From: a virus
DNA length: 64,000 nucleotides
Direction: 5' to 3' (one strand)
Virus record (IMG/VR): IMGVR_UViG_3300032326_000853
Coordinates: 9,456 to 73,455 of that record
In this document: in pieces, positions 1-56,500 of the stretch
Layout: each line of letters begins with the position of its first letter
Position numbering within the stretch: position 1 is the first letter of the stretch
Translations under genes and position numbers: made by a program
Notes under the pieces: model-generated
The model's database searches: none
Told to the model about the DNA's origin: nothing
The model's input: only the letters and a program-made list of their open reading frames with translations

Positions 1-1316
1 GCCCACAAGGCGCACAAGGCGTTGCTGGTCCAGTTGGTCCACAGGGCTTACAAGGACTAGCTGGTGCTACTGGCGCCCAGGGTGTAGCCGGACCAAAGGG
101 TGATACAGGTGAAGTTGGACCGCAAGGCGTAGCTGGTCCACAAGGTTTACAAGGACCCGCTGGCCCTAAAGGTGACACAGGTGCAGACAGTACTGTTCCA
201 GGTCCACAAGGCTTGCAAGGTATTCAGGGTCCTAAGGGCGACAAAGGTGACACAGGTGCAGACAGTACTGTTCCAGGTCCACAAGGTGCAACTGGCCCGC
301 AAGGTTTACAAGGTGTAGCTGGCCCGCAGGGTCCACAAGGTGTTCCGGGTCCAGCAGGCGCAACTGGTACAAGTTACAGCATTAATGGCGTAGCAGATGA
401 AGTTCAAGTTTATGGACTGTCAGCTACCACACAAGCCGGCTATGATCTAGAAGTTGATGTTGCTAATCGTGCAAACAAATTAACAACTGCTCGTAATATT
501 ACTTTAAGTGGTAAAGTAACTGGTTTGACAAGTTTTGACGGCAGTGGTAACGTTAACATGATAACTGCGTTAAACGGTGTAACTACTAGTGAAGTTGCTG
601 AAGGCACAAACAAATATTTCACTGATGCCAGATCACGTGCCGCATTAAGCGCAAGTACAGGTCTAAGCTATAACAGCACAACAGGTGTTATGGCATTAAA
701 TGCCAACAGTGATCAGATCACTGAAGGTTCCAACAACCTATACTTTACCAACAACAGATTTGACAACAGATTAGGTCAAAGTACATTAGCACAGTTTTCT
801 GACGTTTCTAACACAAGCCCAACAACAGGTCAAGCACTTGTATGGAACGGTAGTGCTTGGGCGCCAAGCACTGTAAGCGGTGGCGGAAGTGGTGGCTTAT
901 CAGGTGGTGGAAGTGGCGTATTCAAGGCAACGGCACAAGTTGACTATGATGCAAACGGTAACCTTACTAATGTAAGTATTCTCAACGGTGGCATCAGTGC
1001 AGTTATTACAACTGCTACTTCTACTACTGCCACTGTGACATTTACATTTACAGGTAGCACATGTACTCCATTAGGCATTCAAGTGTATGGTTATCAACGT
1101 GCAAACAACGTGTATGTTACTCGTGCCTTGGCCAGTGACTTCCCAACAAGAACTATTGCTGCCGGCGGCACAAGTGGTAGCCCAACAACATTTAATGCGT
1201 TTGATTCAAGTGCAAACACTATGACTATCAGCTTGACAAAAGCTGTTACGGGTGCCAATGCCGCAATTGGTCAAACAACACATTGCGTATTGCAATTTTT
1301 ATTGAGCTCAATTTAA
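1..1316 (+). CDS. Collagen-like tail fibre protein, 5'-partial. Gly-X-Y repeats run in from before the window, then phage tail-fibre repeats ('GSNNLYFT').
   Basis: Frame 3 translates from base 3 as [15 protein letters not shown]... with no stop, so the gene starts upstream of the window. The ORF-track start at 213 is only an internal TTG. C-terminal part has YFTDARSR...[13 protein letters not shown] fibre repeats. Confidence 0.7.
168..284 (+). repeat. 43/44-bp near-perfect direct repeat within the collagen-like coding region
   Basis: aaggtgacacaggtgcagacagtactgttccaggtccacaagg at 168-211 and 241-284. Confidence 0.8.
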
Positions 1317-3310: not shown

Positions 3311-3687
3311 TGAAAACATATAATAACGCCGCAGGAACTACATCAAGTGATTTTGCATTAGGTCAAGGAACCGGCCACGAAGTTCGTCAGTACACATTGA
3401 GCCGTACTGATGCTGGTATTGCAACAGACAGAACTGGCAGTCAAATTACTATTGCTGGTGTAGAATTTTATGATGCCAAGGTGCTGGCCAAGAGCACAGG
3501 TGGCATTGTCGCGAAACAACTACGCGGCACTGTAAACGGAACAACAGTTACTCGAATTGAGGATGTTTTTCAAGAAGATATTGTGGCAGATGTCAATGTA
3601 ACATCTGATGGCACAACACTAAGCGTAAATTGTACAGGCACAGGAAACTTTACAATTTATATAACACTAACAAGGGTAGCTGAATAA
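3310..3687 (+). CDS. Hypothetical small structural protein
   Basis: ORF overlapping neighbours by ATGA/TAATG. Thr/Gly-rich. Confidence 0.35.
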   Translation: MKTYNNAAGTTSSDFALGQGTGHEVRQYTLSRTDAGIATDRTGSQITIAGVEFYDAKVLAKSTGGIVAKQLRGTVNGTTVTRIEDVFQEDIVADVNVTSDGTTLSVNCTGTGNFTIYITLTRVAE

Positions 3688-9797: not shown

Positions 9798-9885
9798 AAG
9801 CGTATGTTTGATTTTAGATATTTGACGTTTGCTATTTGACTATTTTCGTTTCCCTTGCTTCGTGGCAATACTAAATATCTGTATG

Positions 9886-11472
9886 GCACAAATTATTATA
9901 TGCGCAGGTATTTCTTTTATAGCAACAATGCGACCCGTGGGTGCGTTTCAAATCGCAGCCGTACTCCGCAAACAAGGATACACTGTACAAGTTATTGACA
10001 ACTGGCCGCACATTGCTAAACGCGGCCCTGAAGTTGTAAAAAAAGTTCTTGATCACTTTACTACAAAAGATACACTATGGATAGGATTCAGTTCCACCTG
10101 GTTTAAAAAACTAGTTGATAGTGAAAAGGGACAACCTTACAGTCTAGCTGGCCAAGCCAGCAGTATGTATAAAAACGTAGACGATTTACTGACCAACACC
10201 TACATCTTTGATGATGCTGAACTAGCAGAGATAAAAGAATCAGTTAGATCTAAAAGTCCCAAGTGCCAATTTGTATTAGGTGGAGGCCGCGCCCCTCTTG
10301 GTAGATTGGTCAGACGACCTGGTTTCATTGACTGCTTTATCGAAGGCTTTGCTGATACCACAGCAGTAGAGTACACAAAATACATTGAGGGCAAGAATCC
10401 GTTTTTGCCCTATGTGAAAAATTCAGACGGCAGTATCAGTATTACACATGACCACAAAGCGTCAAGATTTGATTACAACAATGACAAATTTTCGTGGCAT
10501 GAAAATGATCTAGTGCGTCAGGGCGAAGCACTGCCAATGGAGATTGCACGTGGTTGTATCTTTAACTGTAATTTTTGTGCATATCCCTTAAACGGTCGTA
10601 AGAAGCTGGACTATCTTAAAGACCCTGCAATTATTCGAGCGCAGTTTGAAGAAAACTACGACAGATTCAAAACCACTCACTACTGGCTACTAGACGACAC
10701 ATTCAACGACAGTCCTGAGAAACTTCAAATTTTATATGATGAAGTATTTTCAAAGCTGTCATTTAAAATAAACTTCAATGCATTTATGCGCTTGGACCTT
10801 ATGGCAGCGCATCCGCACACAATTGATCTAATTGCCGCTAGCGGAGCAGGTGGTCTCAGCTTTGGTATTGAAACCTTAAACTACGAAGCAAATAAAAGTA
10901 TTGGTAAGGGTATCACTAAAGAAAAAATTATTGATACACTACACAAGATCAACGCCAAGATGCCGGAAGGATCCTTGATCGATTCTCAATTCATTATTGG
11001 CTTACCTTACGAGACTCCGGACACTGCTAGGGAATGGATCACAGAAGTTACTTCACCTGAGTTCCCTTTAGGCAATGCAAAGATTCATTTGCTTTCAATG
11101 CACCCGTTCAAGGGCCTTGAAAATGTTTGGATCAGTAACTTTGAAAAGTATCCAGAAAAATATGGATACACTTTTCCTAATAAGAATTTCCCATTCTCGT
11201 GGGTCAACAACATGGGATTCTCTGTCAAGCAAGCATTTGACTTGCACACTGAAATGTATGATAAAATCATGTCAAAGGAAATGGATGCATGGTTATCGTA
11301 TGCTGGTTGGCTGAATTTGGGTCTTAGCGAAGAACAGGCCAGAGAGCTGGTTTCTATCAACAAGGCCCGAAGAACCGAAAGCAGTTTGGCGGCCAGCACA
11401 AATGCATTCCATATACACGAAGCTTTTATCGACAACTATATTAATCAATTGTTAAATCTTGATCCTCAATGA
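9886..11472 (+). CDS. B12-binding-domain radical SAM enzyme (paralog of 56501..57991)
   Basis: CxxxCxxC motif 'GCIFNCNFCAYP'. N-terminal region aligns with the paralog (..YTVQVIDNW.. vs ..YNTQVIDHL..). Start chosen at 'MAQIII' by alignment. The ORF track starts earlier, at 9829. Confidence 0.7.
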   Translation, partial: AQIIICAGISFIATMRPVGAFQIAAVLRKQGYTVQVIDNWPHIAKRGPEVVKKVLDHFTTKDTLWIGFSSTWFKKLVDSEKGQPYSLAGQASSMYKNVDDLLTNTYIFDDAELAEIKESVRSKSPKCQFVLGGGRAPLGRLVRRPGFIDCFIEGFADTTAVEYTKYIEGKNPFLPYVKNSDGSISITHDHKASRFDYNNDKFSWHENDLVRQGEALPMEIARGCIFNCNFCAYPLNGRKKLDYLKDPAIIRAQFEENYDRFKTTHYWLLDDTFNDSPEKLQILYDEVFSKLSFKINFNAFMRLDLMAAHPHTIDLIAASGAGGLSFGIETLNYEANKSIGKGITKEKIIDTLHKINAKMPEGSLIDSQFIIGLPYETPDTAREWITEVTSPEFPLGNAKIHLLSMHPFKGLENVWISNFEKYPEKYGYTFPNKNFPFSWVNNMGFSVKQAFDLHTEMYDKIMSKEMDAWLSYAGWLNLGLSEEQARELVSINKARRTESSLAASTNAFHIHEAFIDNYINQLLNLDPQ

Positions 11473-13377: not shown

Positions 13378-13413
13378 TCTCCTTTAAAACCGTTAAAACG
13401 GGTTACATTGATG

Positions 13414-13442
13414 TTGCACCGCAACATATATAGTGTTATACT
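13414..13442 (+). promoter_or_regulatory. Promoter TTGCAC-17-TATACT with flanking small hairpins
   Basis: ttgcac at 13414-19, tatact at 13437-42. Hairpins gaaacact/agtgtttc and atgttgc/gcaacat nearby. Precedes a strong RBS 'AAAGGAGAAATAAGCATG'. Confidence 0.45.
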
Positions 13443-13528
13443 AGTGAAAACACTGATAGTGTTTCTACTAGTGATAGTGCTCATTAGAGGCTATCAAAAA
13501 CTCGCTTAACATTAAAGGAGAAATAAGC

Positions 13529-20772: not shown

Positions 20773-21592
20773 GAATATTTTTGACACCTGGGGTATTGAA
20801 TACAATATCACCTTTGAGCAATTACTTGCACAAGAAAAAGCCACTTGGCAACGCATTTTAGTTGATCGTGGACTTATTGTGTTCCGCGGCCTTGGTCCCA
20901 ATTTGACCGATGCAGAATATCACTCCATTGGTGAAAAGTTTGGTCGTGTGTGGACTCAAGAAGACTACAAGCGCACCCCTACTGATACCACGATTAAACA
21001 TCGAGACACTACGCCTGTCAGCTATTTTCAAACCAACAACATGTGGGGCGCCAGGGACATGAAGTATCATGCTGACATGGCACATGTTGGAGAGAACAGT
21101 TTTCCGGCCCGAGCACTTTATATGGTGCGTGGCGCACAGAATCGCAGTGGTGAAACTTCTTGGTTAAACTTAGAAGCGGCTTGGGCACAGTTTACTCGTG
21201 AAGAAAAAGAACAGTTTAAAAACCATTTTATTGTACAACAAGACATGTACAAGCCAGGTACCAATTTGGTTAGATATCCTTTTCTAAAAGCCAATCCCAA
21301 AAGCGGAAAGTTTAGTCCGCGAGTCAACTGCTATGTCACACCTGGCAAAAATCAAGTTGCTTGGGTTCACCACGTTGAACACGATGACACGCCCGTAGAG
21401 GATTCGGGTGCATTTATTGAATCTGTGTATCAACTATGCGAAAGCAAACTCAATACTGTATATTCGCACACCTGGGATGATGGCGATTTGATTGTTTATG
21501 ATAATTGGAATTCGGTTCACAAGCGTACTGAAGTTAAACTGGCGCCTGGAGAATCTGATCGCTTGCTTAAACGATTAACTTTCAATATTTAA
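20763..21592 (+). CDS. Fe(II)/2-oxoglutarate dioxygenase, TauD/TfdA family
   Basis: 'YHADMAHVGENSFPARALYMVRGAQNRSGETSWLN' fits the TauD 'WHTD.TF...PP.G.IL.........GG.T.W'. C-terminal 'GDLIVYDNWNSVHKR' fits 'GDLVIWDNR..LH.A'. Start is ambiguous between 20742 and 20763. Confidence 0.65.
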
Positions 21593-21910
21593 AATATCGT
21601 AATCCAGCAAACCAATGGTATTGTGTGTTTCTCGAATACCATTGGCGTTATTGTATGCCATCCTGTCCCGGACATTCATTGATGTTACTGGATTTGAAAG
21701 CCAATTCTGATAATCTTCTATGGTAGGGAAAAGCAGGGTTCTTATTCTAACCAAACCATCTGTGAAGTTTCTTTCGCCAACCACTGCTGGTGGCCCATAA
21801 GTACGCAGAGCATTTTTTACCGATTCGGGCGCGGCATAAAAAGGCACATTGACATTGGGCCTAACTTGCTTGATAATCAATAATTGGCAGGACATTGTGT
21901 ATATATTCAA
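21575..21910 (-). CDS. Hypothetical protein (paralog of 21985..22308)
   Basis: Shares 'L(L/V)IKQ.RP...V.F', 'GERN..(D/G)GL..IRTL.F' and 'NANGI.E.H' with the adjacent minus-strand gene. Confidence 0.45.
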   Translation of the reverse strand: MNIYTMSCQLLIIKQVRPNVNVPFYAAPESVKNALRTYGPPAVVGERNFTDGLVRIRTLLFPTIEDYQNWLSNPVTSMNVRDRMAYNNANGIRETHNTIGLLDYDILNIES

Positions 21911-21984: not shown

Positions 21985-22308
21985 TTATAGAACAGGTGCT
22001 TTAAATGGATTGTAGTTTGGCATATCAACAGTGTGAATTTCTTCAACAATGCCATTGGCTGCATTATGTGCATTACGTGCGGCAACGTTAGCTTGAATTG
22101 GTGCAGAAGCTTGCCAATCAATATAAGATTGTGCAGTTGTAAAAAATAATGTACGGATTTTCTTTAATCCGCCATCAATATTGCGCTCACCAGCAACAAT
22201 AGGAATTGGTTCAGCTCGCATTGAAGCCTTGGCTTCTACTGTAGGAGTAAAGAATGCAACATCTAGTGATGGGCGAGTTTGTTTAATAACTAATAATTTT
22301 GCGGCCAT
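21985..22308 (-). CDS. Hypothetical protein (paralog of 21575..21910)
   Basis: See paralog. Confidence 0.45.
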   Translation of the reverse strand: MAAKLLVIKQTRPSLDVAFFTPTVEAKASMRAEPIPIVAGERNIDGGLKKIRTLFFTTAQSYIDWQASAPIQANVAARNAHNAANGIVEEIHTVDMPNYNPFKAPVL

Positions 22309-22379
22309 TTTAGGCTCCTTTAAGTTTTGGCAAAGTCATCTGCCAAGTTTATTTAGTTAAAATAGGGCTTTTAAACTGG

Positions 22380-22517
22380 GTTTTTGTTGCTAAAATGCAA
22401 CAGTCTAAGTGTTGCTAAAATACAACAAAAGTACACAAAAAATAGCCCAAAAACGCCCAAAAATCTGGCCCAAAACACCAAAAAATGGTTGACTTCTGGT
22501 CCAGATCGCAGTATAAT
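22380..22517 (+). promoter_or_regulatory. Promoter-operator cassette, copy A. It has TTGTTGC-N6-GCAACA inverted repeats (x2) and A-rich 'AGCCCAAAA' boxes. It has TTGACT-17-TATAAT with a TCTGGtCCAGA palindrome in the spacer.
   Basis: ttgact at 22489-94 and tataat at 22512-17. Near-identical architecture recurs at 30526..30627. Confidence 0.6.
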
Positions 22518-22523
22518 AATAAC

Positions 22524-22856
22524 ATGAACTGCAAAAACACCCCAACACAACGCAAGCGCCGTACAGATCGTAACCATGCAATTTACGAACTGTTTTGCGA
22601 AGCAACAGGTGAAAGCTACATTGGTATCACTGTAGTTGATGGGACTGCATTGGGTTCTGTTCGTGGACGTTTTAACCGTCACTTGAGCCGTGCTAAGACA
22701 GAAAGCAAGAACTGGAACTTGTGCGAAGCACTTCGTACATATGGCCGTGAAGGCTTTACTCCCTACTTGTTGGAAGTGGTTCGTGGTAAGACAGCGGCTC
22801 ATGCTCGCGAACGTGAATTGATTGCAATTATGCAACCTGCTCTTAACTCTCTTTAA
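22524..22856 (+). CDS. GIY-YIG nuclease-domain protein (homing-endonuclease-like catalytic domain only)
   Basis: 'IYELF...GESYIGIT' (GIY-YIG variant), 'RFNRH', and downstream Glu/Asn residues. The ATG lies 6 nt after the -10, so the mRNA may be leaderless. The ORF-track start at 22485 lies inside the -35. Confidence 0.45.
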   Translation: MNCKNTPTQRKRRTDRNHAIYELFCEATGESYIGITVVDGTALGSVRGRFNRHLSRAKTESKNWNLCEALRTYGREGFTPYLLEVVRGKTAAHARERELIAIMQPALNSL

Positions 22857-22867
22857 AAGGAAACACC

Positions 22868-23077
22868 ATGAGTGATTATGCTATGTTCTCTGATGCTGGC
22901 GATGCCGCAGTTCAAGATATTGTGGGCCTGGCCAAACGTCAAGGCCTGTCTTGGAAAATCACATACAGCCTGCTGATGGCTCTGAGTGAAGACGAGCGTT
23001 TTGGTGAAGCCACTGACACCGCAGTTCGTGAATGCGTTTACAGTGCCTGTGGTTACAATACCCCTTTTTACATTTAA
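22868..23077 (+). CDS. Hypothetical small protein
   Basis: AAAGGAAACACCATG RBS. Confidence 0.4.
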   Translation: MSDYAMFSDAGDAAVQDIVGLAKRQGLSWKITYSLLMALSEDERFGEATDTAVRECVYSACGYNTPFYI

Positions 23078-23086
23078 GGACTCATC

Positions 23087-23329
23087 ATGTTTGAAACAGA
23101 ATACGAAGTGGAATTTAACGGTATCAAGTATGTCCAAAAACACGGCAACCCGTTTGATCGTGGCTCAGCTGACAGTTACTACCATCGTGAAATTAATCCT
23201 CACTACTGGCCCGAAGGCACTGGCCATGGCACAATGGTCGAGGGCAAGGATATGACTCCTGCAGAGATTGTGGCCTACATGGCCGGTTACGAATGGAACG
23301 AAAAGTTCGGCGACAAGAAAGAATGGTAA
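23087..23329 (+). CDS. Hypothetical small protein
   Basis: AGGACTCATCATG RBS. Confidence 0.4.
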   Translation: MFETEYEVEFNGIKYVQKHGNPFDRGSADSYYHREINPHYWPEGTGHGTMVEGKDMTPAEIVAYMAGYEWNEKFGDKKEW

Positions 23330-23528
23330 ATGGTCCGCGAGTATCAAGTTATCAATGCAACATACGATGAATTCCATCGTCGTGTGGCAGAGTTGATTGC
23401 AGAAGGATGGCAACCTCAGGGTGGTGTTGCCATCATTCGAGAATACTTGACAGAGCCAACCACTTATTACTTTCAGGCATTCGTTAGGTAAATCTTACTT
23501 AAATTTGTAAATCTTGTTTACATTTTGC

Positions 23529-23573
23529 TTGACAAAGTTGTAAAAAGACTATACACTTATCTACATTGTATAG
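23529..23573 (+). promoter_or_regulatory. Promoter TTGACA-17-TACACT overlapped by a 7-bp inverted repeat CTATACA-N11-TGTATAG (candidate LuxR-family operator)
   Basis: AT-rich 230-bp intergenic region upstream of two LuxR-type genes. IR arms at 23549-55 and 23567-73. Confidence 0.45.
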
Positions 23574-23708
23574 TAATAAATTTTATAATTTTATAACAAT
23601 GCAATAAAGGGTAGTGGTAAGTGAAAGTCTAATACTGAAGTTGCTTGTAGTACTAGAGCAGGTATATTGATGCGTTCCCCCACTGTAAGTACTATACAGG
23701 GAACAAAT

Positions 23709-24398
23709 ATGAAACGAACAATTTATTTTGATACAGTAAGCAGTCAGTTCAGCGTAGACGCTAAGATTGCAATCAGTGACATTACCAACAGCACCATTGA
23801 CACTGTTGATTCGTGGCCAGCTCTTATGAGCCTGCTTTGCCAAGAATTGTGTCATGGTGAGGCGTCTGAAAATGATATTACATTAGTAATCTTTAATAAA
23901 GATACACTGTCATTTCCGGGTACTACAGTAAATGAAATTGTAGATGCACTAACAACAATTTCAACTATAGCAGGACCAAAAAAAGTAAGTGTAGGAATTT
24001 TAGTAAATGACAAATGCGAACAAAAGTTTATACAAGATTTAAAGAAAAGCAACATAAGCGGCATCGTACCAAACTATAAGAGTTTTGGAGATGCCGATTT
24101 CTTTGACGCCTTGAATACCTTACTGTCTGGAACTACGCACTGGCCCGAAGCATACATTGTGCCTAGAGTAAAGTTATCTACTAGAGCCACAGTGGAATAT
24201 GGTATTAGACTAACTGGGCGCCAAAGAGAAATCTTAGCCTTGGTGGCCAATCGCGGTTTGAGCAACAAAAAGATTGCACAGATTTTAAATATCAGCGAAA
24301 GCACTGTGAAAGTGCATATCAGTTCTATCCTAAAAGCATATGGAGTACGGAATAGGACACAGTTGGCCTTAGCCGGAAACAAAGGATTGCATGCGTGA
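23709..24398 (+). CDS. LuxR/FixJ-family HTH transcriptional regulator with uncharacterised N-terminal domain
   Basis: C-terminal GerE-type HTH 'LTGRQREILALVANRGLSNKKIAQILNISESTVKVHISSILKAYGVRNRTQLA'. The N-terminal 170 aa lack receiver-domain acid-pocket residues. Confidence 0.75.
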   Translation: MKRTIYFDTVSSQFSVDAKIAISDITNSTIDTVDSWPALMSLLCQELCHGEASENDITLVIFNKDTLSFPGTTVNEIVDALTTISTIAGPKKVSVGILVNDKCEQKFIQDLKKSNISGIVPNYKSFGDADFFDALNTLLSGTTHWPEAYIVPRVKLSTRATVEYGIRLTGRQREILALVANRGLSNKKIAQILNISESTVKVHISSILKAYGVRNRTQLALAGNKGLHA

Positions 24399-25101
24399 AA
24401 CACTGTCAGATATAGTTTATTTTTGCCCTTGGGTTTCATCTACAAAAAGTAAAAATTCACAAGCCAACGAGTTAAAGTCAATTGTCAGTGTAGCCGACAA
24501 CTTGAAACAGTTGTCAAATATTGAAGTTACTATTGCCCCAACTTGGGCCGCGCTTATTGAGCTCATGCAAGACAACAACCGAAATAACATGTTGGTGGTA
24601 TTTCGATTGGACTTCTTGGAGCGTGAAAATATGATGCTAGGCGAAGTGCTGACCATGCTGAGTTCACTGACCAAATTTGTATCCACAAAGACCATTAACA
24701 TTGCAGTGGTTGTACCCAGTGCATGTGACGCTGATTTGATTGCACAATTAAAAAGAAATGAAGTACTGGGTATTATTCCGGGCATGCGATTCTTTGATCA
24801 CAGTGACACAGTTGAAGCCTACGAGCGACTGCGTCGTGGACAAAGTCATTGGCCAGCTGTGGCAATTGAAGCACCAATGAAGCGATACGTTCGTAAGAAA
24901 AAAGGTGTAGACTTGACCAAGCGCCAAAGTGAAATCTTTGTTTTAATTGCCAAGCGTGGACTAAGCAATGCCAAGATTGCTGAGATATTGAAAATCAGCG
25001 AGTACACTGTCAAGATTCATGTTAGTGCAATTTTACGAAGGTACGGTGTTAAAAATAGAACACAACTTGCCCTGGCCAACACAACAGGCCCTATAACATA
25101 A
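24391..25101 (+). CDS. Second LuxR-family HTH regulator (tandem paralog)
   Basis: 'LTKRQSEIFVLIAKRGLSNAKIAEILKISEYTVKIHVSAILRRYGVKNRTQLALA'. Same architecture as the upstream gene. Confidence 0.75.
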   Translation: MRETLSDIVYFCPWVSSTKSKNSQANELKSIVSVADNLKQLSNIEVTIAPTWAALIELMQDNNRNNMLVVFRLDFLERENMMLGEVLTMLSSLTKFVSTKTINIAVVVPSACDADLIAQLKRNEVLGIIPGMRFFDHSDTVEAYERLRRGQSHWPAVAIEAPMKRYVRKKKGVDLTKRQSEIFVLIAKRGLSNAKIAEILKISEYTVKIHVSAILRRYGVKNRTQLALANTTGPIT

Positions 25102-25102
25102 A

Positions 25103-25127
25103 ATATCCCGGAAGGGATATTTTTTTG
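25103..25127 (+). terminator. Rho-independent terminator ATATCCC-GGAA-GGGATAT-TTTTTTT
   Basis: 7-bp stem plus T7 immediately after the stop at 25101. Confidence 0.75.
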
Positions 25128-25279
25128 ACTCTAGTACTGACGCACACCCTACTACTTTTGCTACAAGCAAATCGGCACTTTTTCCTTTAACTAATTTTGT
25201 ACAGCGGCAGAATCGAATCTACTGCTTACAATCCTAGGCAAACATACAGCCTAGAATTTTACTTTAAAGGAAAAATAAA

Positions 25280-25834
25280 ATGGCTGATATGCTAACAACC
25301 GATCCCTTCTTCAATTTGACAAACCAGGTGGCTGGTGTCCGTGAAAAGGTTTCTGACTCAATTTTCGAAAACTACAAACTACAAGTTGCTCAAACCAACG
25401 ACATCAACAACCGTGCCATGCAAGTTGCATTACACGACTCTAGCGAACTAGCTAACATCAAGCAAGAAATTGCCAACAGCACACTACAAACAATGTTGGC
25501 CGCTGCTCGTACAGACGCACAGATCGGTGCCACAAGTTCCGCTCAACAACGTTTGGTAATGGAACAAGCAGAAGCTACTCGTCGTTTAATCGTGGACTTG
25601 AACACACAAAACTTGAACACAGCATTGATCAACACAAACACAGCATTGACTGGTTTGGGCGTTCAATTCGGTGGTTTAGGTCTTGCATATGGTGGCGCTG
25701 TTAGTGCTTACCAAAGTGCTAACCAAGTAAGCGCAGTAAACGCATTACAAAGCGCAATCTCTAGCCAAGGTCTAGTTAACACAGGTACTATGACAGGTAC
25801 CACACAAACTTCTACACCTACTAGCATCAATTAA
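25280..25834 (+). CDS. Hypothetical protein (Ala/Gln/Thr-rich; C-terminal motif shared with 26125..26295)
   Basis: AAAGGAAAAATAAAATG RBS. C-terminus 'SAISSQGLVNTGTMTGTTQTSTPTSIN'. Confidence 0.45.
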   Translation: MADMLTTDPFFNLTNQVAGVREKVSDSIFENYKLQVAQTNDINNRAMQVALHDSSELANIKQEIANSTLQTMLAAARTDAQIGATSSAQQRLVMEQAEATRRLIVDLNTQNLNTALINTNTALTGLGVQFGGLGLAYGGAVSAYQSANQVSAVNALQSAISSQGLVNTGTMTGTTQTSTPTSIN

Positions 25835-25849
25835 TAGGAGGACTCTATT

Positions 25850-26071
25850 ATGTATAGATCCGGTATTATTGGTCTTGGATACGGTCGAGGTTACATGGGC
25901 GCAGGTATTGGTTATCCCTACGGCGCTTATGCAGGCATTGGTGGCTTTGGCTACCCAGGCTATGGCTTTGGGGGCATTGGCTTAGGCCTAGGCGGTTATG
26001 GTTATGGCTATGGTTACCCAGGCTATGGCTATGGCGGCTACTACGGTGGTATTTCAGGCGGCTTGTTATAA
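25850..26071 (+). CDS. Gly/Tyr-rich low-complexity structural protein (GYGYGYPGYGYGGYYGG)
   Basis: AGGAGG RBS. 73 aa, more than 45% Gly, about 20% Tyr. Followed by a terminator-like hairpin. Confidence 0.5.
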   Translation: MYRSGIIGLGYGRGYMGAGIGYPYGAYAGIGGFGYPGYGFGGIGLGLGGYGYGYGYPGYGYGGYYGGISGGLL

Positions 26072-26080
26072 AATGAGCAC

Positions 26081-26113
26081 AATGGGTTGGCTCACAAGGT
26101 CGACCCATTTTTT
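26081..26113 (+). terminator. Putative terminator (AATGGGT...ACCCATT + T6)
   Basis: 7-bp stem with a large loop and a TTTTTT tail after the stop at 26071. Confidence 0.4.
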
Positions 26114-26124
26114 AAGGAGTAAAA

Positions 26125-26295
26125 ATGTTTTCAGGTTATTATTATCCATACTATAGAAGTTTTATGTACCCCGTGAATCCATGGAGTTATAACACCAGCA
26201 ATGTTATTGGCAGTGCAATATCCAACCAAGGCTTTGTAAACACAGGTACCGCAGTGGGGGTGAATCAAATTTCAACCCCAACAGTTATATGGTGA
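26125..26295 (+). CDS. Small aromatic-rich protein sharing a C-terminal motif with 25280..25834
   Basis: Not in the ORF track (56 aa). AAGGAG RBS. 'MFSGYYYPYYRSFMYP...SAISNQGFVNTGTAVGVNQISTPTVIW'. Confidence 0.35.
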   Translation: MFSGYYYPYYRSFMYPVNPWSYNTSNVIGSAISNQGFVNTGTAVGVNQISTPTVIW

Positions 26296-26299
26296 TTAG

Positions 26300-26968
26300 A
26301 TGTACACAGTGACACACACTATCACTAAAGAACAATATGTTAATGGCCGATTGGTCAAGCCCATGGCCAGCGAATCTCTGCCAGTGGTGGTCATTAACGA
26401 AAAAACTATGACGTTTCGCATGGACAATCGTACACTATGGACACGTTATAGTTTGGGCATGATTAACTTTTCAGTTGCGCTGTATGGCAATGTGGACAGT
26501 GAAAATGTTCTAGAAAATTTAAAAAAGGCAGCGGCAGCTTGTGGTGAATATTTTGCACCATATTATGGCTTTAATGCTGCCAAAAAGGTCAGCAGTCTCT
26601 TAGCAGTCATTGTGGTCAATGGCAGCAAGGTTGCAGAGGCACTTAAGGCCAAAAGAGACATTGTGGCTTACGAAACAATTTGGGACAAACAAATTGATGA
26701 ACTTGCAAACTATCTCAATGAGCTTAATCCCAATTATTGGCCCAAGGACACACTCAACGAAATGTTCATTAACCTGACAGCACTGTGGACTGATGACTTT
26801 AAGGCCAGGCTGATCAAGGACTTTGTAGCAGATTCAATTGCACTTGATAACATTGTAAAAGTTGCAGTGTCGGGTATTCCCAATCATATCAACAAGGGTT
26901 ATACCAGCATTGCTGATACCATTAGCAAAGGAATTATTGCACAGTCACCATTGGAGTTTACAAACTAA
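26300..26968 (+). CDS. Hypothetical protein (paralog of 29177..29824)
   Basis: Shared N-terminus 'MY..THTI..E' and a shared 'NYW..D' motif with 29177..29824. Confidence 0.45.
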   Translation: MYTVTHTITKEQYVNGRLVKPMASESLPVVVINEKTMTFRMDNRTLWTRYSLGMINFSVALYGNVDSENVLENLKKAAAACGEYFAPYYGFNAAKKVSSLLAVIVVNGSKVAEALKAKRDIVAYETIWDKQIDELANYLNELNPNYWPKDTLNEMFINLTALWTDDFKARLIKDFVADSIALDNIVKVAVSGIPNHINKGYTSIADTISKGIIAQSPLEFTN

Positions 26969-26972
26969 CATC

Positions 26973-27215
26973 ATGGCAGTACTGAGTTCAAATAAAGATA
27001 TAGAATTAACTGACTTAGAAACGCATGTTGCGTTATGTGCTCAACGCCGACGAGCACTTGAACTTCGCTTAGATAATGTAGAGCGCAAGATTTCACAAGC
27101 AGATGAAAGATCAGATCGAATTAAAATCTTGGTACTGGGAGGATTAGTTTCTCTTGCTGTTGGCATAGCCGGAACTATATTTGCAGTGCTATTAAAACAC
27201 GGAGTACTGCAATGA
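26973..27215 (+). CDS. Small membrane-anchored coiled-coil protein
   Basis: C-terminal TM 'ILVLGGLVSLAVGIAGTIFAVLL'. Start inferred at the ATG just after the upstream stop. Confidence 0.35.
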   Translation: MAVLSSNKDIELTDLETHVALCAQRRRALELRLDNVERKISQADERSDRIKILVLGGLVSLAVGIAGTIFAVLLKHGVLQ

Positions 27216-27754
27216 ACAATCAACAACTGGCAGAACAACGCCGCTTAGAAGAAATATTAAAACTTGCTAGAATGCAACTCAATGAAGAGTACATGAAGAA
27301 GCACTCGGCTGCACATACTGCTTGGTTAACTGGTGCAAGAACAGCATGGAACAGCAGTGGGATTCTACTGCCATTTGCCACCAAATTTGTCTACCCGTCT
27401 GAAGAAGAAGTAGTGGCACGTGGAGTTGAGATTTACAATACACTAACACCAAAGACTGCAACAGCGCCTGTAACACCTGCCACAATTATCGAACAGCCGC
27501 AGACTATGGAAGAAGTTGTAATTGAACCCACAGTTGAATTACTGCAAGCAGGCGGGGATTTTGTATTAGCAGAAGTTGTTGAAGAAGAATCGCCGGTGGA
27601 AGAAGTTGTGCCGCTTGCAGTCGAAGAAGATATTACAGACGTTGAAGTAAAAGAAGAAACTCCCAATGTCCCAGAACCAACTGTGACTGATTCTCTAATA
27701 GAGAACCGATTTAAAAGCCTATTCACCAAGTGGGGCGGCCGTGGTAATTTTTAA
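27212..27754 (+). CDS. Hypothetical acidic protein (EEVV repeats)
   Basis: Glu/Val-rich C-terminal half. Confidence 0.4.
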   Translation: MNNQQLAEQRRLEEILKLARMQLNEEYMKKHSAAHTAWLTGARTAWNSSGILLPFATKFVYPSEEEVVARGVEIYNTLTPKTATAPVTPATIIEQPQTMEEVVIEPTVELLQAGGDFVLAEVVEEESPVEEVVPLAVEEDITDVEVKEETPNVPEPTVTDSLIENRFKSLFTKWGGRGNF

Positions 27755-27766
27755 GGAAAACAAAAC

Positions 27767-28252
27767 ATGATGTTTAACAATTTAGGCCTGTATTCGTACT
27801 GGCAGTATCGCAGACGCAGACCCGGACGTAGTAGCCCACGGCCCCTGGCTCGCAGGGGAGGCTTTCCGCTTATTCAACAAATTGGCGGTGCTGGCCAAGA
27901 CTTTTTTATCAATGGCGGCACGGGACCTGCGGGACCGCCTGGCCCTCCGGGACCACCTGGTACTCCTGGCCTGGTGCCTGTGACCATTGTTACAACTACA
28001 CCATTTACGCCCACGCTGACAAATTATCTATTGGATATAAATGTAGCAGGACCTTCCAGTGTGGTGCTTCCTGTAAGCCCAACTGGCACAGTTTTTATTG
28101 TCAAAGACTTTAGCGGTAATGCTTCTACTAATCCCATTACAATAACAGCCGTTGGCGGAACGTTATTTGACGGTAATGCAAATGCCACTATCAATGCGGA
28201 CTACGGTGCTTTGCAATTGGTATTCAATGGAACAGAATGGAGTATAGTGTAA
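27767..28252 (+). CDS. Short collagen-like protein with conserved C-terminal beta domain (family member 1 of 3)
   Basis: 'GPAGPPGPPGPPGTPG', then 'LP.SPTGTVFIVKDFSGNAS.NPITI...GG.L.DGNANATI.A.YGALQLVF.G.EW'. Confidence 0.5.
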   Translation: MMFNNLGLYSYWQYRRRRPGRSSPRPLARRGGFPLIQQIGGAGQDFFINGGTGPAGPPGPPGPPGTPGLVPVTIVTTTPFTPTLTNYLLDINVAGPSSVVLPVSPTGTVFIVKDFSGNASTNPITITAVGGTLFDGNANATINADYGALQLVFNGTEWSIV

Positions 28253-28284
28253 GATACACTATCAATTTTTAAAGGAAGACAACT

Positions 28285-28683
28285 ATGTCATATACAAACA
28301 ATCCAACTTCAATACTTGCAGGAACAGGTATTACAGTTACACCCACAACTGGCACCGGTGCCAACACTATTACTATTGCTGCCACTGGCGTAGTAATCAC
28401 AGCAATTAGAATTGCCATAGCGACCCCCGTAGTAGTAGCACCTACAGATGCAGCCGTTAGTGTACAAGTTCCAGGACCTGTACCTGTGGCTGTTACATTG
28501 CCGATTGGCGTAACTGGCCAAACTTTTATCATCAAAGATGGTCTAGGCTTGGCTAGTGTTGCAACACCTATTACTATTACACCCGCCGCAGGTAGTATTG
28601 ATGGCGCTATCACAGCTACAATTACAGCACCTTATGGTTCATTGACAATGATCTATGACGGTGTACAGTGGTTACTAACTTAA
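28285..28683 (+). CDS. Fibre-like protein sharing the C-terminal domain (family member 2)
   Basis: 'LPIGVTGQTFIIKDGLGLAS..TPITI....GSIDGAITATI.APYGSLTMIYDGVQW'. Confidence 0.5.
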   Translation: MSYTNNPTSILAGTGITVTPTTGTGANTITIAATGVVITAIRIAIATPVVVAPTDAAVSVQVPGPVPVAVTLPIGVTGQTFIIKDGLGLASVATPITITPAAGSIDGAITATITAPYGSLTMIYDGVQWLLT

Positions 28684-28689
28684 TCAATT

Positions 28690-29163
28690 ATGGCCTACAA
28701 TAGACAACCACAAACAGTATTAGCGGGGATGGCGCTAAAGCAAAATCCTCCTCCAACCATCTTACAACCTGCCGGAATTGTTGCAGTGACATTAGATGCT
28801 GACATAGCAACTACCGCCAGCCTGGGCGTAGTCCAAATTGGCAGTGGCTTGTCTATTACTCCCGGCGGTGTATTGTCAGCAACAGGAAGCAGTAGTGGCT
28901 TACTCAACGTAAAATTAACATCCATTGACTATACTGCTACAGTATCTGATTATTACATTGGTGCTACTAAGAAAGACATTGAAATAACTTTACCTTTAGG
29001 AGTAACCGGTAAAGTTTATATTGCCAAAAATCAAGTCAGCGGAAATATCAAGGTTAAAGCATCAGGTGGACAAAAAATAGACACGGCATCTGATGTAAAT
29101 CTGGGCACAAATAACAGCATTGTTGTTGTGTTTGACGGTACACGATGGAACGTCATTGAATAA
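28690..29163 (+). CDS. Fibre-like protein sharing the C-terminal domain (family member 3)
   Basis: 'LPLGVTGKVYIAKNQVSGNIKV.ASGGQKID......LG.N.SIVVVFDGTRW'. Confidence 0.5.
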   Translation: MAYNRQPQTVLAGMALKQNPPPTILQPAGIVAVTLDADIATTASLGVVQIGSGLSITPGGVLSATGSSSGLLNVKLTSIDYTATVSDYYIGATKKDIEITLPLGVTGKVYIAKNQVSGNIKVKASGGQKIDTASDVNLGTNNSIVVVFDGTRWNVIE

Positions 29164-29176
29164 AAGGAAATAAATC

Positions 29177-29824
29177 ATGTATAAAAAAATTACACATACC
29201 ATTGTCGAAGAGCACTTCGATCATCCCATGGGCGTTGGCATTGCAGCCAACGTAGGCCTACCCAAATTGGGGCGCCACACAATTGCCGAAGTTATGTCAA
29301 GTGGTCAATTCAAGACCTACGTTGACAACTATTTTATGGAAACAGAAGACAAGCTGGTTGAATTTGCTAACGCAACATTTGACGAGAATCTTGATTTCCA
29401 GTCTGCTATTGCCAATGCTATGAATTACGAATCTCTAGGCAACACCTTGGGCAAATATTACGATGTTGAATTCCAGGAACGCTTTAATCAGAACATGGGC
29501 ATTTGGATTATGCAATTGTTGTACTACTGGAGAAACTCTATTCGTAAACTTGACAACAAAGAGACCCTAGCAAGACTAAAGACTCAAGCCTGGGCCATGT
29601 CACAAATAATGAATCAGTACAACAACTACTGGGACAGAGATATTCTAAGAGCACTACTAGACGACTTCCTTGGAGAGTTCGTAAACTTAGGCAATGCTAA
29701 ATTGGCAAAAAACAAGGCCAACGAAACTGCTTCCTTGGATCGCATTGCAGCCGCTGGTTCAAAACTATCCAACTATCTTGCCAATGGTGTTATACAACAG
29801 CACCCCGAGTTGTTTAGTGTCTAA
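29177..29824 (+). CDS. Hypothetical protein (paralog of 26300..26968)
   Basis: See 26300..26968. Confidence 0.45.
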   Translation: MYKKITHTIVEEHFDHPMGVGIAANVGLPKLGRHTIAEVMSSGQFKTYVDNYFMETEDKLVEFANATFDENLDFQSAIANAMNYESLGNTLGKYYDVEFQERFNQNMGIWIMQLLYYWRNSIRKLDNKETLARLKTQAWAMSQIMNQYNNYWDRDILRALLDDFLGEFVNLGNAKLAKNKANETASLDRIAAAGSKLSNYLANGVIQQHPELFSV

Positions 29825-30501
29825 TGCCCAAACAAGCAGTTGACCTTAGAGAATGGGCCAGTCCCGTTGAAGAACAATGGCAACTGGGTAGTTGCACTGC
29901 ACAGGCAGTAATCGGTGCTTATGAATTATTGACTAAGATGCACTACCCAGACCAATTTGTTGATCTAAGTAGATTGTTTTTGTACTACAATGCTAGAAAA
30001 ATTGCAGGCGACGTAGAAGAAGATGTTGGGGCGTATGTTTCAACTGCTTTGACGGCAATTGAGTTATACGGACTTTGTAGGGAAGATCTATGGCCATATG
30101 ATGCTGGCCGATTCAAAGTTGAACCTGGATATAAATGCTATCGCGATGCCAAAATGCGATCTATAACCAACGTTCGTGAAGTTACTTCACATGACATGAT
30201 CATTGACATGCTTGATCGTCAGTATCCAGTTGTAGTTGGTGTTGCTGTTTATTCAGGATTTGACTCTATTGACAATCAAACAACAACTTTAAAAATGCCT
30301 ATGACTGCTGAGGAGCCCATTGGTAGTCATGCCATGTGCATTGTTGGATACAATGATGCCCGGCAAGCATTTTTAGTAAGAAACAGCTTTGGTGACGACT
30401 GGGGCGAAGGCGGATATTTTTGGGTTCCCTTTGTGTACGCAGACGAAAATTTTTCAGATATGTGGACTTTTGATGTGAAATTAAACGGTATAAACAGTTA
30501 A
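29824..30501 (+). CDS. Papain-like cysteine protease (peptidase C1 family)
   Basis: 'EEQWQLGSCTAQAV' (the QxxxGSCWA Cys motif). 'GSHAMCIVGYND' (His) and 'FLVRNSFGDDWGEGGYFWV' (the Asn-Ser-Trp-Gly motif). Confidence 0.65.
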   Translation: MPKQAVDLREWASPVEEQWQLGSCTAQAVIGAYELLTKMHYPDQFVDLSRLFLYYNARKIAGDVEEDVGAYVSTALTAIELYGLCREDLWPYDAGRFKVEPGYKCYRDAKMRSITNVREVTSHDMIIDMLDRQYPVVVGVAVYSGFDSIDNQTTTLKMPMTAEEPIGSHAMCIVGYNDARQAFLVRNSFGDDWGEGGYFWVPFVYADENFSDMWTFDVKLNGINS

Positions 30502-30525
30502 AAACAGTTAATACCCAAGTATTAC

Positions 30526-30627
30526 CTTTTTGTTGCTAAAAAACAACACTTTTTGACCAAAAAAAGCTCAAAAAACAGCCCAAAATGCCAGAAAAAGGTT
30601 GACCATCTGGACCAGAACCAGTATAAT
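30526..30627 (+). promoter_or_regulatory. Promoter-operator cassette, copy B: TTGTTGC..CAACA IR, 'CAGCCCAAAATGCC' box. It has TTGACC-17-TATAAT with a TCTGGaCCAGA palindrome in the spacer.
   Basis: ttgacc at 30599-604 and tataat at 30622-27. Gene with AGGAG RBS at 30661. Confidence 0.6.
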
Positions 30628-30660
30628 ACATACATAGCGAAACAAAACAGGAGTTAGAAG

Positions 30661-30888
30661 ATGACAGAATTTGAAAGCAAGTGCTACGGAATGTCCGAAG
30701 CTCAAATCCGCGAAGAGTACATGAACAGCATCACTGCTAAGTTTAGCGGACTTGAAATGGTTGCTATGGGTGTGTTGTCAGACTCCCAAGAATTGCTTGC
30801 AATGGGTCGCAACGAACAAGCCCGTAAACAAATCAACATTGCCAAATTCATCCTGTCAGAAATGATGGATGCACGAGTTTCAGCTTAA
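30661..30888 (+). CDS. Hypothetical small protein
   Basis: AGGAG RBS. Downstream of repeated promoter B. Confidence 0.45.
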   Translation: MTEFESKCYGMSEAQIREEYMNSITAKFSGLEMVAMGVLSDSQELLAMGRNEQARKQINIAKFILSEMMDARVSA

Positions 30889-37251: not shown

Positions 37252-37731
37252 ATGAAAAAGATAACTTTAGCCTTAGCAGTGGTATTAAGTGGAGCCCCGA
37301 ATGCCGCTGAATTACAACACAATTTCAATAGTCCAGCCTTTAGTGGTGTGGGCTATTCGTCACATGTTCTAACTTTAAAACAGTTAGAAGATCAACAAAA
37401 AGACAAAAACAGACAGGCAGCAGAAGCATTAAAAGCTGCCGCTGAACGTGAGGCCGCAAATACGCCGCAAGCACGTTTTAAAGCCAGTATGGAAACTCGC
37501 ATTTATAGTGAGTTAGCCAAACGCATTAGCGATAGTCTATTTGGTTCTAGTCCAAATGCACCAACATGTACTCCAACATCAAGTGGTGGCCCATGTGGCG
37601 ATATTGACATTGGCGGTCAAAATATTACTTGGAGAATCCAAGGTACAAATATCATTGTTAGAATTTCAGAAATTGCAAATCCTAACAACTATACAGAATT
37701 AGTAATGCCTTATGCGGCATTTAACATCTAA
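37252..37731 (+). CDS. csgF: CsgF-like curli assembly protein (secreted)
   Basis: Signal peptide MKKITLALAVVLSGAPNAA. 'ELQHNFNSPAFSGVGYSSHVLTLKQLEDQ' parallels E. coli CsgF '[28 protein letters not shown]'. Size 159 aa. Confidence 0.45.
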   Translation: MKKITLALAVVLSGAPNAAELQHNFNSPAFSGVGYSSHVLTLKQLEDQQKDKNRQAAEALKAAAEREAANTPQARFKASMETRIYSELAKRISDSLFGSSPNAPTCTPTSSGGPCGDIDIGGQNITWRIQGTNIIVRISEIANPNNYTELVMPYAAFNI

Positions 37732-37741
37732 GGAAATAAAC

Positions 37742-38623
37742 ATGAAAAAAACAACATTATCCTTAGCAATATCAGCAGTAATTCTACTGTCAGGTTGTGC
37801 CACAGGTTCTGCTATACGTGAAAAAGCCACTGGCAAACAATTTGATGAGCCAGTAGTTGAGCAAAATGCATTTTTAAAAAATCAATCAGACAAGTTACTA
37901 CCACCTTCAACAGGTCCAATTCCAGTTGCTGTTTATGGATTCCAAGACAAGACTGGTCAGCGTAAGAGTATTCCTAACATTGCCAGCTTATCAAGTGCAG
38001 TTACACAAGGTGCCGAAAGCTACTTGATCAAGGCCTTACAAGACGTTGGTCAAGCCCGTTGGTTTACAGTGCTAGAGCGTGTGGGTCTAGACAACTTGAT
38101 CAAAGAGCGTCAAATGATTCGTCAAGCACGTGAGCAATATCAGGGCAAAGATGCAAAGCCATTGAACCCTATGATGTTTGCTGGCATCATTGTCGAAGGC
38201 GGCATTATTGGTTATGACAGCAATACACTAACAGGCGGATCTGGTGTTCGTTTGTTTGGCATTGGTGCAACTACTCAGTATCAAAGCGACACAGTTACAG
38301 TTAACCTACGTACAGTCAGCGTAAGCACAGGCGAAGTGTTAACCAGCGTAACAGTCACTAAAACAGTATTAAGCTATATGGACAAGTTTGGCGTATTAAA
38401 ATTTGTTGACAGCGGTACACAAAGTGTAGAAGCTGAAACAGGCGCCAGCATTAACGAAAGTATCAATAAGGCGGTAAATTTAGCTGTTCAAGCCGCTGTA
38501 GTAAACACAATTCACGAAGGTGCTCGTAAAGGACACTGGAGTTTTAAAGAAGATAAGCCAGCTAACCCAACTGTAGTAGTTCCAGCAGTTGAAGAGGTCA
38601 AGGGAGGCGCGACTGCACAATAA
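37742..38623 (+). CDS. csgG: CsgG curli secretion channel lipoprotein
   Basis: Lipobox LLSGCAT. 'VAVYGFQDKTGQ', 'VTQGAESYLIKALQDVGQARWFTVLERVGLDNLIKERQMIRQA' and 'IIVEGGIIGYDSNTLTGGSGVRLFGIGATTQYQSDTVTVNLRTVSVSTGEVLTSVTVTKTVLSY' match E. coli CsgG blocks closely. Confidence 0.85.
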   Translation: MKKTTLSLAISAVILLSGCATGSAIREKATGKQFDEPVVEQNAFLKNQSDKLLPPSTGPIPVAVYGFQDKTGQRKSIPNIASLSSAVTQGAESYLIKALQDVGQARWFTVLERVGLDNLIKERQMIRQAREQYQGKDAKPLNPMMFAGIIVEGGIIGYDSNTLTGGSGVRLFGIGATTQYQSDTVTVNLRTVSVSTGEVLTSVTVTKTVLSYMDKFGVLKFVDSGTQSVEAETGASINESINKAVNLAVQAAVVNTIHEGARKGHWSFKEDKPANPTVVVPAVEEVKGGATAQ

Positions 38624-45895: not shown

Positions 45896-45929
45896 TTGAC
45901 ACAGCCGTTAAAATGTGTTAAATTATAGT
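45896..45929 (+). promoter_or_regulatory. Promoter TTGACA-17-TAAATT(ATAGT) abutting the cyclase start codon
   Basis: ttgaca at 45896-901. ATG at 45930 with no SD, which suggests a short-leader or leaderless transcript. Confidence 0.45.
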
Positions 45930-56475: not shown

Positions 56476-56500
56476 GACTACAGCTTGTATAAGTACACGC

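Follow-up and report, generated by a model that had tools for sequence, protein, structure and literature searches.

A candidate early-type promoter cassette with an upstream dyad and phased A-tracts in a family of uncultured freshwater phages

The detailed architecture of early promoters is known for only a few cultured phages. Among bacterial sigma70 promoters, class I activators of the CRP type bind at −61.5, −71.5, −82.5 and −92.5, rrnB P1 carries FIS sites together with an UP element, and integration host factor (IHF) or curved DNA is known to lie between upstream activator sites and their promoters. The lambda cI transcript from PRM is an example of a leaderless phage mRNA. The early promoters of phage T4 have been described as 'uber' UP/−35/TGn/−10 promoters with extra consensus regions (Hinton 2010, PMC2988021). 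The promoter-early stem-loop (PeSL) cassettes of T4-type phages combine a sigma70 promoter and an AT-rich region with a palindrome, often located either within that region or between −35 and −10, and such cassettes occur in hyperplastic genome regions (Arbiol et al. 2010, PMC2839356; Comeau et al. 2014, PMC4122927). Here, we describe two promoter cassettes, copy A and copy B, in a 64,000-nucleotide stretch of the IMG/VR virus record IMGVR_UViG_3300032326_000853 (64 kb; hereafter the window, to which all coordinates refer), together with their counterparts in loci of related phages (labelled L001, L003 and so on). We read the two copies as paralogous instances of an early-type promoter cassette that is spread across a family of uncultured freshwater phages, in which a factor bound to an upstream dyad would be held in position by a curved linker. 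From the sequence comparisons given below, we assign this reading a probability of about 0.62.

Shared plan of the two cassettes

Copy A (22384–22523) and copy B (30530–30633), both on the plus strand, share one plan, which comprises an 18-bp dyad of the form TGTTGY-N6-RCAACA, phased A-tracts and the core promoter TTGAC(T/C)-17-TATAAT. Copy A contains two plus-strand dyads. Dyad A1, TGTTGCTAAAATGCAACA (TGTTGC-TAAAAT-GCAACA, 22385–22402), is a perfect 6-N6-6 palindrome centred at about −130.5 from the predicted start, and dyad A2, TGTTGCTAAAATACAACA (TGTTGC-TAAAAT-ACAACA, 22410–22427), is centred at about −105.5, with its central A-tract in phase with the array that follows. This array (22427–22486, plus strand) consists of six helically phased A-tracts, whose centres lie at −60.5, −49.5, −38, −28, −15.5 and −6.5 from the start of the −35 hexamer. 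The core promoter (22489–22517, plus strand) is formed by TTGACT (22489–22494), a 17-bp spacer and TATAAT (22512–22517), and the palindrome TCTGGTCCAGA (22495–22505) lies between −35 and −10. Copy B carries a single plus-strand dyad, TGTTGCTAAAAAACAACA (TGTTGC-TAAAAA-ACAACA, 30531–30548), centred at about −94.5. It is followed on the same strand by an array of one T-tract and four phased A-tracts (30549–30596; A-tract centres at −37, −26.5, −15.5 and −5 from the start of −35) and by a core promoter (30599–30627) of TTGACC (30599–30604), a 17-bp spacer and TATAAT (30622–30627), again with a palindrome, TCTGGACCAGA (30606–30616), between −35 and −10. The predicted +1 of copy B is A30634, located within a conserved Y-A-T-R start motif.

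In each copy, the sigma70 hexamers match the consensus at 11 of 12 positions, with a spacer of 17 bp and TATAAT as the −10 hexamer. UP-type A-tracts are centred at about −41 and −51 from +1 in both copies, and the family-wide profile agrees with this placement. The host sigma70 RNA polymerase would be expected to bind these promoters very strongly, through the hexamers and through contacts of the C-terminal domain of its alpha subunit (alpha-CTD) with the proximal A-tracts, as described for T4 early promoters (PMC2988021), and the cassettes may act as early promoters of the T4 type.

The initial annotation had reported two cassette copies 8 kb apart with dyads, A-rich boxes and TTGAC(T/C)-17-TATAAT promoters, and all of these elements were found where it had placed them. 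Its repeat formula, TTGTTGC-N6-GCAACA, holds for the number of dyads (two in A and one in B), but the right half-site is ACAACA rather than GCAACA in two of the three. Likewise, the palindrome in the 17-bp spacer is present in both copies, but its position relative to −35 differs by 1 nt between A and B. The exact dyad has three matches in 64 kb, all within the two cassettes, and the exact spacer palindrome occurs only at promoters A and B. When the sequence was scanned for A-tracts with a period of 9.5–11.5 bp, the best 21 of 12,786 segments of 70 bp all fell inside the two cassettes. A scan of the 64 kb for additional copies found none in the window besides A and B, while many exist among the loci of relatives. 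Given the unique dyads and palindromes, the top ranks of the A-tract arrays and the orthologous conservation in relatives, coincidence is ruled out as the cause of the likeness between A and B. A recent local duplication, which the annotation had judged not to be the cause, is indeed contradicted, since A and B differ by many substitutions and indels and each has closer orthologues elsewhere. Copy B and its orthologue in L003 are more alike than A and B are, which indicates an old paralogy.

The dyad and its linker across the phage family

Orthologous A and B cassettes are present in L001–L010, and more than 20 distinct cassettes were found in loci selected by protein similarity. In 1.14 Mb of such loci, GTTGY-N6-RCAAC has 67 matches versus 3.6 ± 1.7 in shuffled sequences, an enrichment of about 18-fold. 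Altogether, the comparison extended over about 2 Mb of sequence from relatives. No spacing other than N6 is enriched: loci chosen independently of the motif gave 50 unique sites with N6 versus 1–11 for each of the other spacings from N0 to N12, and the counts across all family loci are 141 versus 0–10. When IMG/VR was scanned for the dyad with GGTTGAC after it, at least 120 loci were returned; in 98 of the matches, a −10 hexamer is retained at the proper distance, against a chance expectation of about 3%. A first, broad scan of IMG/VR with the dyad only had returned mostly unrelated matches. The family loci contain 356 unique TTGAC-17-TAYAMT promoters. A dyad lies within 160 bp upstream of 119 of these 356 promoters, and the upstream stretches hold 127 dyads versus 11 in downstream stretches of equal length. 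The dyad logo reads T(96%)-GTTG-Y, six A/T-rich bases (about 80% A on the sense strand) and R-CAAC-A(93%), and the outer T and A were not demanded by the search pattern. The strict N6 spacing, these conserved flanking bases and the upstream placement suggest that the dyad behaves like a protein-binding site, in agreement with the initial annotation.

With its fixed 6-N6-6 geometry and the helical register described below, the dyad is more readily read as a site for a protein than as a hairpin in RNA. Folding of the dyad hairpin gives −3.1 kcal/mol (z = −0.13), the spacer palindromes form no hairpin, and the three bases 3' of the dyad (logo positions 18–20) are A-rich, not T-rich. Terminators or hairpins were considered for the palindromes and rejected on the basis of this weak or absent folding and the lack of a T-run. 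A literature search for TGTTGC/GCAACA returned only primers and unrelated sites. To our knowledge, none of the sites of CRP, FNR, FIS, NifA (TGT-N10-ACA), TyrR, LexA or FadR fits the dyad in sequence and spacing, nor do we know of a fit with Zur, parS, KorB or the MotA box; the spacer palindrome likewise does not fit the FadR consensus as we know it. Separately, the window contains a perfect palindrome, ATGTTGC-N3-GCAACAT (13411–13427), with the half-sites of the cassette dyad at a spacing of N3. This palindrome overlaps the −35 region of a promoter, TTGCAC-17-TATACT, and is kept in L003, L010, L213, L220, L221, L255 and L319 with a variable 3-nt centre. On its 3' side lies a conserved long inverted repeat, TAGTGAAAACACT..AGTGTTTCTACTA (approximately 13440–13475).

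The A-tracts number 5–7 per cassette and are spaced by about 10.5–11 bp. The spacing between the dyad and −35 falls into clusters near 27, 36, 47, 58, 68, 77 and 88 bp, that is, every 10–10.5 bp, and linker indels between orthologues amount to 10 or 11 bp; the array of copy A is longer by 11 bp in L001 and L003. Only in dyad-bearing promoters does A-tract occupancy show maxima at intervals of 11 bp as far as −62 from −35; in the family-wide profile, promoters without a dyad show the proximal A-tract peak alone. We read the array of copy A as intrinsically bent DNA combined with an extended UP element. The phased A-tracts would form an intrinsically curved linker, by which a dimer bound to the dyad would be presented to the polymerase from a single face of the helix, and this putative factor, of phage or host origin, could tune early transcription from −55 to −130.

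The same features raise the question of whether any dedicated sequence-specific factor is involved, as the dyad and the A-tracts might together act purely structurally, as curved DNA with an extended UP element. The centre of the dyad is itself an oriented A-tract, with its bias towards A on the sense strand and its phase with the array, and curved DNA and UP elements upstream are established activators of sigma70 promoters (PMC2988021). However, curvature does not explain the near-invariant, G/C-containing half-sites TGTTG and CAACA, the strict N6 spacing, the conserved flanking T and A, or those dyads that lie 24–37 bp from a promoter without an A-tract array. A purely structural element is thus unlikely.

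In sister clades, a conserved motif, AAATCAACAACTTAC, is located approximately 21–51 bp (mode 30) upstream of −35, where the clade of the window has its A-tract array. It was observed in 22 instances (loci L014, L022, L024, L026, L030, L053, L056, L062, L072, L080, L086 and L087), and it matches the IHF consensus, WATCAANNNNTTR. In L018, L062 and L087, the dyad, AAATCAACAACTTAC and A-tracts occur together. A terminator of the form AACCCTAC...GTAGGGTT-TTTT often precedes the motif. Because AAATCAACAACTTAC replaces or joins the A-tracts in some clades, the sequences suggest, as a lead, that an intrinsic bend and an IHF-type, protein-induced bend may be interchangeable in these promoters.

The dyads and the spacer palindrome had initially been proposed as operators for the neighbouring LuxR pair or for a small repressor, within an early or lysogeny switch. 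The dyad has the 18-bp length typical of a LuxR-type box, a perfect 11-bp palindrome lies between −35 and −10 at both promoters of the window, and the LuxR pair is located between the cassettes. However, LuxR homologues were found in only four of more than 300 loci (L001, L002, L217 and L221), and they track neither the dyad, which occurs in cassettes of dozens of lineages lacking LuxR, nor the spacer palindrome, which is absent from L221 despite its LuxR gene. The palindrome is lineage-specific. It is perfect only in the window, L001, L002 and the A copies of L217, L328 and L118, and it is degenerate in copy B of L003, L009, L010, L217 and L328 and in copy A of L009, L010 and L213, so that even lineages having it, such as L217 and L328, often keep it perfect in copy A only. 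These distributions argue against both the palindrome as an operator and the LuxR pair as its regulator. The structural models do not favour a small neighbouring repressor either. The divergent 107-aa gene next to copy A (21985–22308, minus strand) and its tandem paralogue (21575–21910, 38% identity) gave models at a predicted local distance difference test (pLDDT) score of 93 with an ABM-like dimeric alpha+beta barrel, a fold that makes the 107-aa protein a poor candidate for DNA binding. The 75-aa protein behind copy B (gene at 30661–30888, plus strand) was modelled as a two-helix hairpin (pLDDT 84) with no helix-turn-helix (HTH) and no significant structural match. The dyads stand clear of the core promoter, at about −94 to −130, and the family loci carry T4-type replication and late-transcription genes, the T4 type being a lytic kind of phage. 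Accordingly, we give a LuxR- or repressor-controlled switch almost no weight.

Several points weigh against our reading of a dyad factor held by a curved linker upstream of T4-like early promoters. The TGn extended −10, which is typical of T4 early promoters, is absent from both copies in the window (CAG-TATAAT), while many relatives have TGC-TATAAT. The T4-type genes were found in family loci, not in the window. Many loci of the large set were themselves selected by the dyad–promoter pattern. The Rayleigh tests for the helical periodicity (p = 5e-7 for the 119 dyad promoters; p = 0.004 for the 22 protein-selected cases) count related sequences as independent, and the helically spaced positions, which resemble those of class I-type activator sites, could be mimicked by relatedness and by slippage of the 10–11-bp A-tract unit; the periodicity could thus be a by-product of slippage and shared ancestry. 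As for the binder of the dyad, none of the modelled neighbouring small proteins appears to be a DNA binder, and the co-occurrence of genes with the dyad was uninformative, being confounded by phylogeny and partial loci. Pfam scans of 120 common family proteins also revealed no obvious HTH regulator among the matches listed. The gene for the factor may lie in another part of these large genomes or in the genome of the host.

Genes behind the cassettes and the module between them

Copy A is predicted to drive a 110-aa single-domain GIY-YIG nuclease gene (22524–22856, plus strand; Pfam 1.7e-05; gene callers also give 110 aa) and a few small genes. The ATG of the nuclease gene begins 6 nt after TATAAT, coinciding with the predicted +1, and no Shine-Dalgarno sequence is present. 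Since the ATG stands at the expected +1, the mRNA of copy A is predicted to be leaderless, and read-through into the gene is unlikely because the gene upstream is divergent. The layout of TATAAT, six bases and ATGAAC is kept in L001, L003, L009, L010, L209–L215 and dozens of IMG/VR loci, and all GIY-YIG orthologues seen have the ATG exactly 6 nt after TATAAT, though their upstream parts differ. Over the family promoters, an ATG stands 6 nt after −10 in 85 of 356, about a quarter, and in 50 of the 119 that bear a dyad, where 1.6% would be expected by chance in either case. Even where the promoter has a leader, the start carries the motif Y-A(85%)-T(89%)-R, in which A-T-(G/A) stands 7 nt after the −10 hexamer. 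The predicted leaderless genes are mostly small GIY-YIG nucleases of several subfamilies; among the others are a homologue of the 69-aa gene and a 77-aa membrane protein (MKLD.NE.LQWAG...) that recurs. The transcript of copy A would thus begin with AUG at +1, and leaderless translation might either keep the output of the nuclease low or free the cassette from a ribosome-binding site.

The link with nucleases bears on a further explanation, in which the adjacent GIY-YIG nuclease recognises or cuts the dyad, and dyad, promoter and leaderless gene form a self-contained homing cassette. Leaderless GIY-YIG starts were identified by a strict regular expression in 29 of the 119 dyad-bearing promoters versus 1 of the 237 without a dyad; the expression missed about eight more GIY-YIG-like starts (of the RKRRTDRNQV... 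type), giving roughly 37 of 119. Moreover, several GIY-YIG subfamilies in differing genomic contexts all carry the cassette. However, this association is subject to ascertainment bias, as loci were chosen by the dyad, and most dyads stand at promoters of unrelated genes. The 110-aa protein consists of the catalytic domain only, and its gene is stably syntenic beside the 107-aa gene across relatives at 53–100% identity. We therefore consider a homing cassette very improbable.

Copy B would drive a Shine-Dalgarno-led operon. Its 26-nt leader contains the Shine-Dalgarno sequence AGGAG (30649–30653, plus strand), and the 75-aa gene of the predicted helical hairpin is followed by 92-aa and 74-aa genes. 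In nearly every relative, a near-consensus promoter is found about 35 nt upstream of the start codon of the 75-aa gene. The genes behind A and B had been proposed as a co-regulated early or lysogeny set; they do look like a co-expressed early set, but not like a lysogeny switch. On the other side of copy A, the family of the 107-aa protein and its paralogue comprises 43 clusters, is confined to this phage clade and always stands beside the GIY-YIG cassette and a TauD-like dioxygenase. The minus-strand 5' leader of the 107-aa gene contains a hairpin or dyad, TTGGCA-N8-TGCCAA (22326–22347), directly upstream of the Shine-Dalgarno sequence, and this element is kept, with changes, in L003, L213 and L217. 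A sigma54 promoter in this hairpin or in the cassette spacers was considered and rejected, as the spacing, judged by eye, is GG-N8 or GG-N11-GC rather than N10.

The stretch between the cassettes is largely filled by a lineage-specific accessory block (approximately 23330–30501, plus strand) that runs from two LuxR/GerE regulators (23667–25101) to a C1 peptidase (29824–30501) at its right end, and that also contains a DUF1737 gene, a promoter of its own (23529), and small and collagen-like genes. Among the latter is a 161-aa protein with G-X-Y repeats (27767–28252), and such repeats also occur in the first open reading frames of the window (1–1316). Gly, Tyr and Pro account for nearly all residues of a 73-aa protein (GYGYGYPGYGYGG; 25850–26071) that is encoded in the region as well. 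The accessory block is absent or much shorter in L003, L009, L010, L217 and L328, and the distance between A and B accordingly varies, from about 1 kb in L328 through 1.4 kb in L003, L009 and L010 and 3.3 kb in L217 to 8 kb in the window, L001 and L002. The separation by 8 kb is therefore incidental, as the block sits between cassettes that are closer together in relatives. In L003, L009 and L010, only the last codons of the peptidase are left, just upstream of cassette B.

These rearrangements recall a mobile cassette of the PeSL type, whose importance would be chiefly evolutionary, serving as a recombination point at which small genes and accessory modules are shuffled, an explanation that is compatible with our reading of the cassettes as early-type promoters. 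It accords with the varying size of the module between A and B, with the occurrence of the small genes p69, p74 and p80 behind different cassettes in different genomes, and with the resemblance to described PeSLs in composition and in placement within variable regions (PMC2839356; PMC4122927). It also accords with the B cassette of L328 (reverse strand, approximately 3380–3450), in which a B-type dyad and a B-type core flank a 29-nt A-type patch, CCAAAAATCTGGCTCAAAACACCAAAAAA, that differs by one mismatch from the proximal A-tract array of cassette A (22458–22486). This patch points to gene conversion between paralogous cassettes, through which they may exchange sequence as PeSL cassettes do in the hyperplastic regions of T4-type phages. 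On the other hand, the palindromes form no stable stem-loops or terminators. Cassette B is the right border of the variable module, but the left junction of the block lies away from any cassette. Concerted evolution of the A and B spacers within genomes was not significant overall (p = 0.26), and the cassettes number only two in the 64 kb of the window, with up to three per 10 kb in relatives. Taken together, we regard a PeSL-type role as a possibility that falls somewhat short of even odds.

Phage context and comparison with known systems

Searches with the region, a 515-aa protein and the 75-aa protein gave no DNA or protein match among GenBank phages. An exact-protein look-up of the 75-aa gene recovered freshwater metagenome contigs with the same gene order (L001 and L002) and a diverged relative (L003). 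Relatives of the 75-aa protein number 268 in IMG/VR, on contigs of up to 231 kb, and 3,252 clusters in a large protein collection, with contigs of up to 361 kb. In bacterial genome collections, the gene was found only in three contigs of metagenome-assembled genomes, which come from discordant phyla and point to no single host. Pfam scans of the 120 common family proteins identified T4 hallmarks, namely RegA (1.7e-47), the late co-activator gp33, the clamp gp45, gp59 and clamp loader A; because of these genes, this family of large uncultured freshwater phages is probably T4-related. Judging from the family loci, the window would then be a variable, cargo-rich region of a large T4-related freshwater phage.

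The window is rich in cargo of cellular type, which comprises a subtilase, three radical-SAM proteins, UvdE, a CHASE2-cyclase, a fatty-acid desaturase, DctP, TctC, CsgF, CsgG, the C1 peptidase and a chitinase-type lysin. The window holds no tRNA, and Rfam gave no match within 21.5–31.5 kb. The radical-SAM genes lie at 9829–11472, 56450–57991 and 61483–62943, and the first two have a stretch of conserved DNA in common (repeat family D15), suggesting that they are paralogues within the cargo region. A membrane sensor, in which a CHASE2 domain is fused to an adenylate/guanylate cyclase domain, is encoded at 45915–47966. CsgF (37252–37731) and CsgG (37712–38623) form a curli-type module on the phage (region 37252–44612), in which four large genes come after CsgG and contain repeats of the form IEQIGNSNTVTIQQVG (repeat family D4) that resemble curlin repeats. 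With their receiver-like N-terminal part, the two LuxR/GerE proteins may regulate this curli cargo in the manner of CsgD. The analysis indicates that the nearby LuxR genes are cargo and not the switch. Curli clusters have been reported in pelagimyophages (PMC7029224).

Stated in its broadest form, the proposal would be that a globally common, probably T4-related family of freshwater phages uses enhancer-like sigma70 early promoters, in which a dyad up to about 130 bp upstream is phased by a curved linker, with an IHF-type site in its place in sister clades, and about a quarter of which start leaderless, chiefly as GIY-YIG cassettes. At that breadth, the claim is tentative and rather less probable than its failure. 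The analysis offers a clear, testable cis-regulatory grammar for very abundant uncultured freshwater phages, in which a dyad, a phased bend and a near-consensus promoter are combined, often with a leaderless start. The cassette could serve for annotating the early genes of metagenomic phage genomes, and it would provide a compact natural model for bend-assisted, face-of-helix control of sigma70 promoters. It may also illustrate how small nuclease genes can be expressed when no ribosome-binding site is present.

Among known systems, the cassettes resemble T4 early promoters in their near-consensus sigma70 hexamers, their UP-like A-tracts near −41 and −51 and their extra conserved positions at the start, as well as in their use ahead of small early-type genes in a family with T4-type genes. 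Unlike T4 early promoters, their A-tracts span five to seven helical turns rather than two, and they carry a phased 18-bp dyad up to about −130 and many predicted leaderless transcripts. They share with T4-type PeSLs the form of a repeated composite cassette that stands in variable regions of small and accessory genes, and they may likewise border indels and recombine. In contrast to PeSLs, their palindromes are short, with an A/T-rich centre, and lack the stable stem-loop of a terminator or attenuator, and their upstream dyad keeps a constant 6-N6-6 geometry in helical register. Neither cassette shows the cI/Cro-type layout of operators over divergent core promoters with an adjacent HTH repressor gene, and the dyad does not co-occur with a cognate LuxR gene across genomes, as a LuxR box would. 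The periodic dyad positions, and the bent DNA between site and promoter, are shared with promoters that depend on upstream activators, and the AAATCAACAACTTAC motif in the linker of the sister clades, about 30 bp upstream of −35, is reminiscent of IHF-bent promoters. Unlike those of upstream-activator promoters, however, the core promoter of the cassette is already near consensus, so that activation is perhaps not needed. As in the lambda cI mRNA, an AUG lies at the predicted start, 7 nt downstream of −10, with no Shine-Dalgarno sequence. The cassette differs from that case in its strong early-type promoter, in its GIY-YIG product and in its recurrence at about a quarter of the strong promoters of the family. 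To what is known of phage early promoters and PeSLs, the cassette would thus add an upstream dyad that has a fixed geometry and stands in helical register, together with leaderless starts that are frequent.

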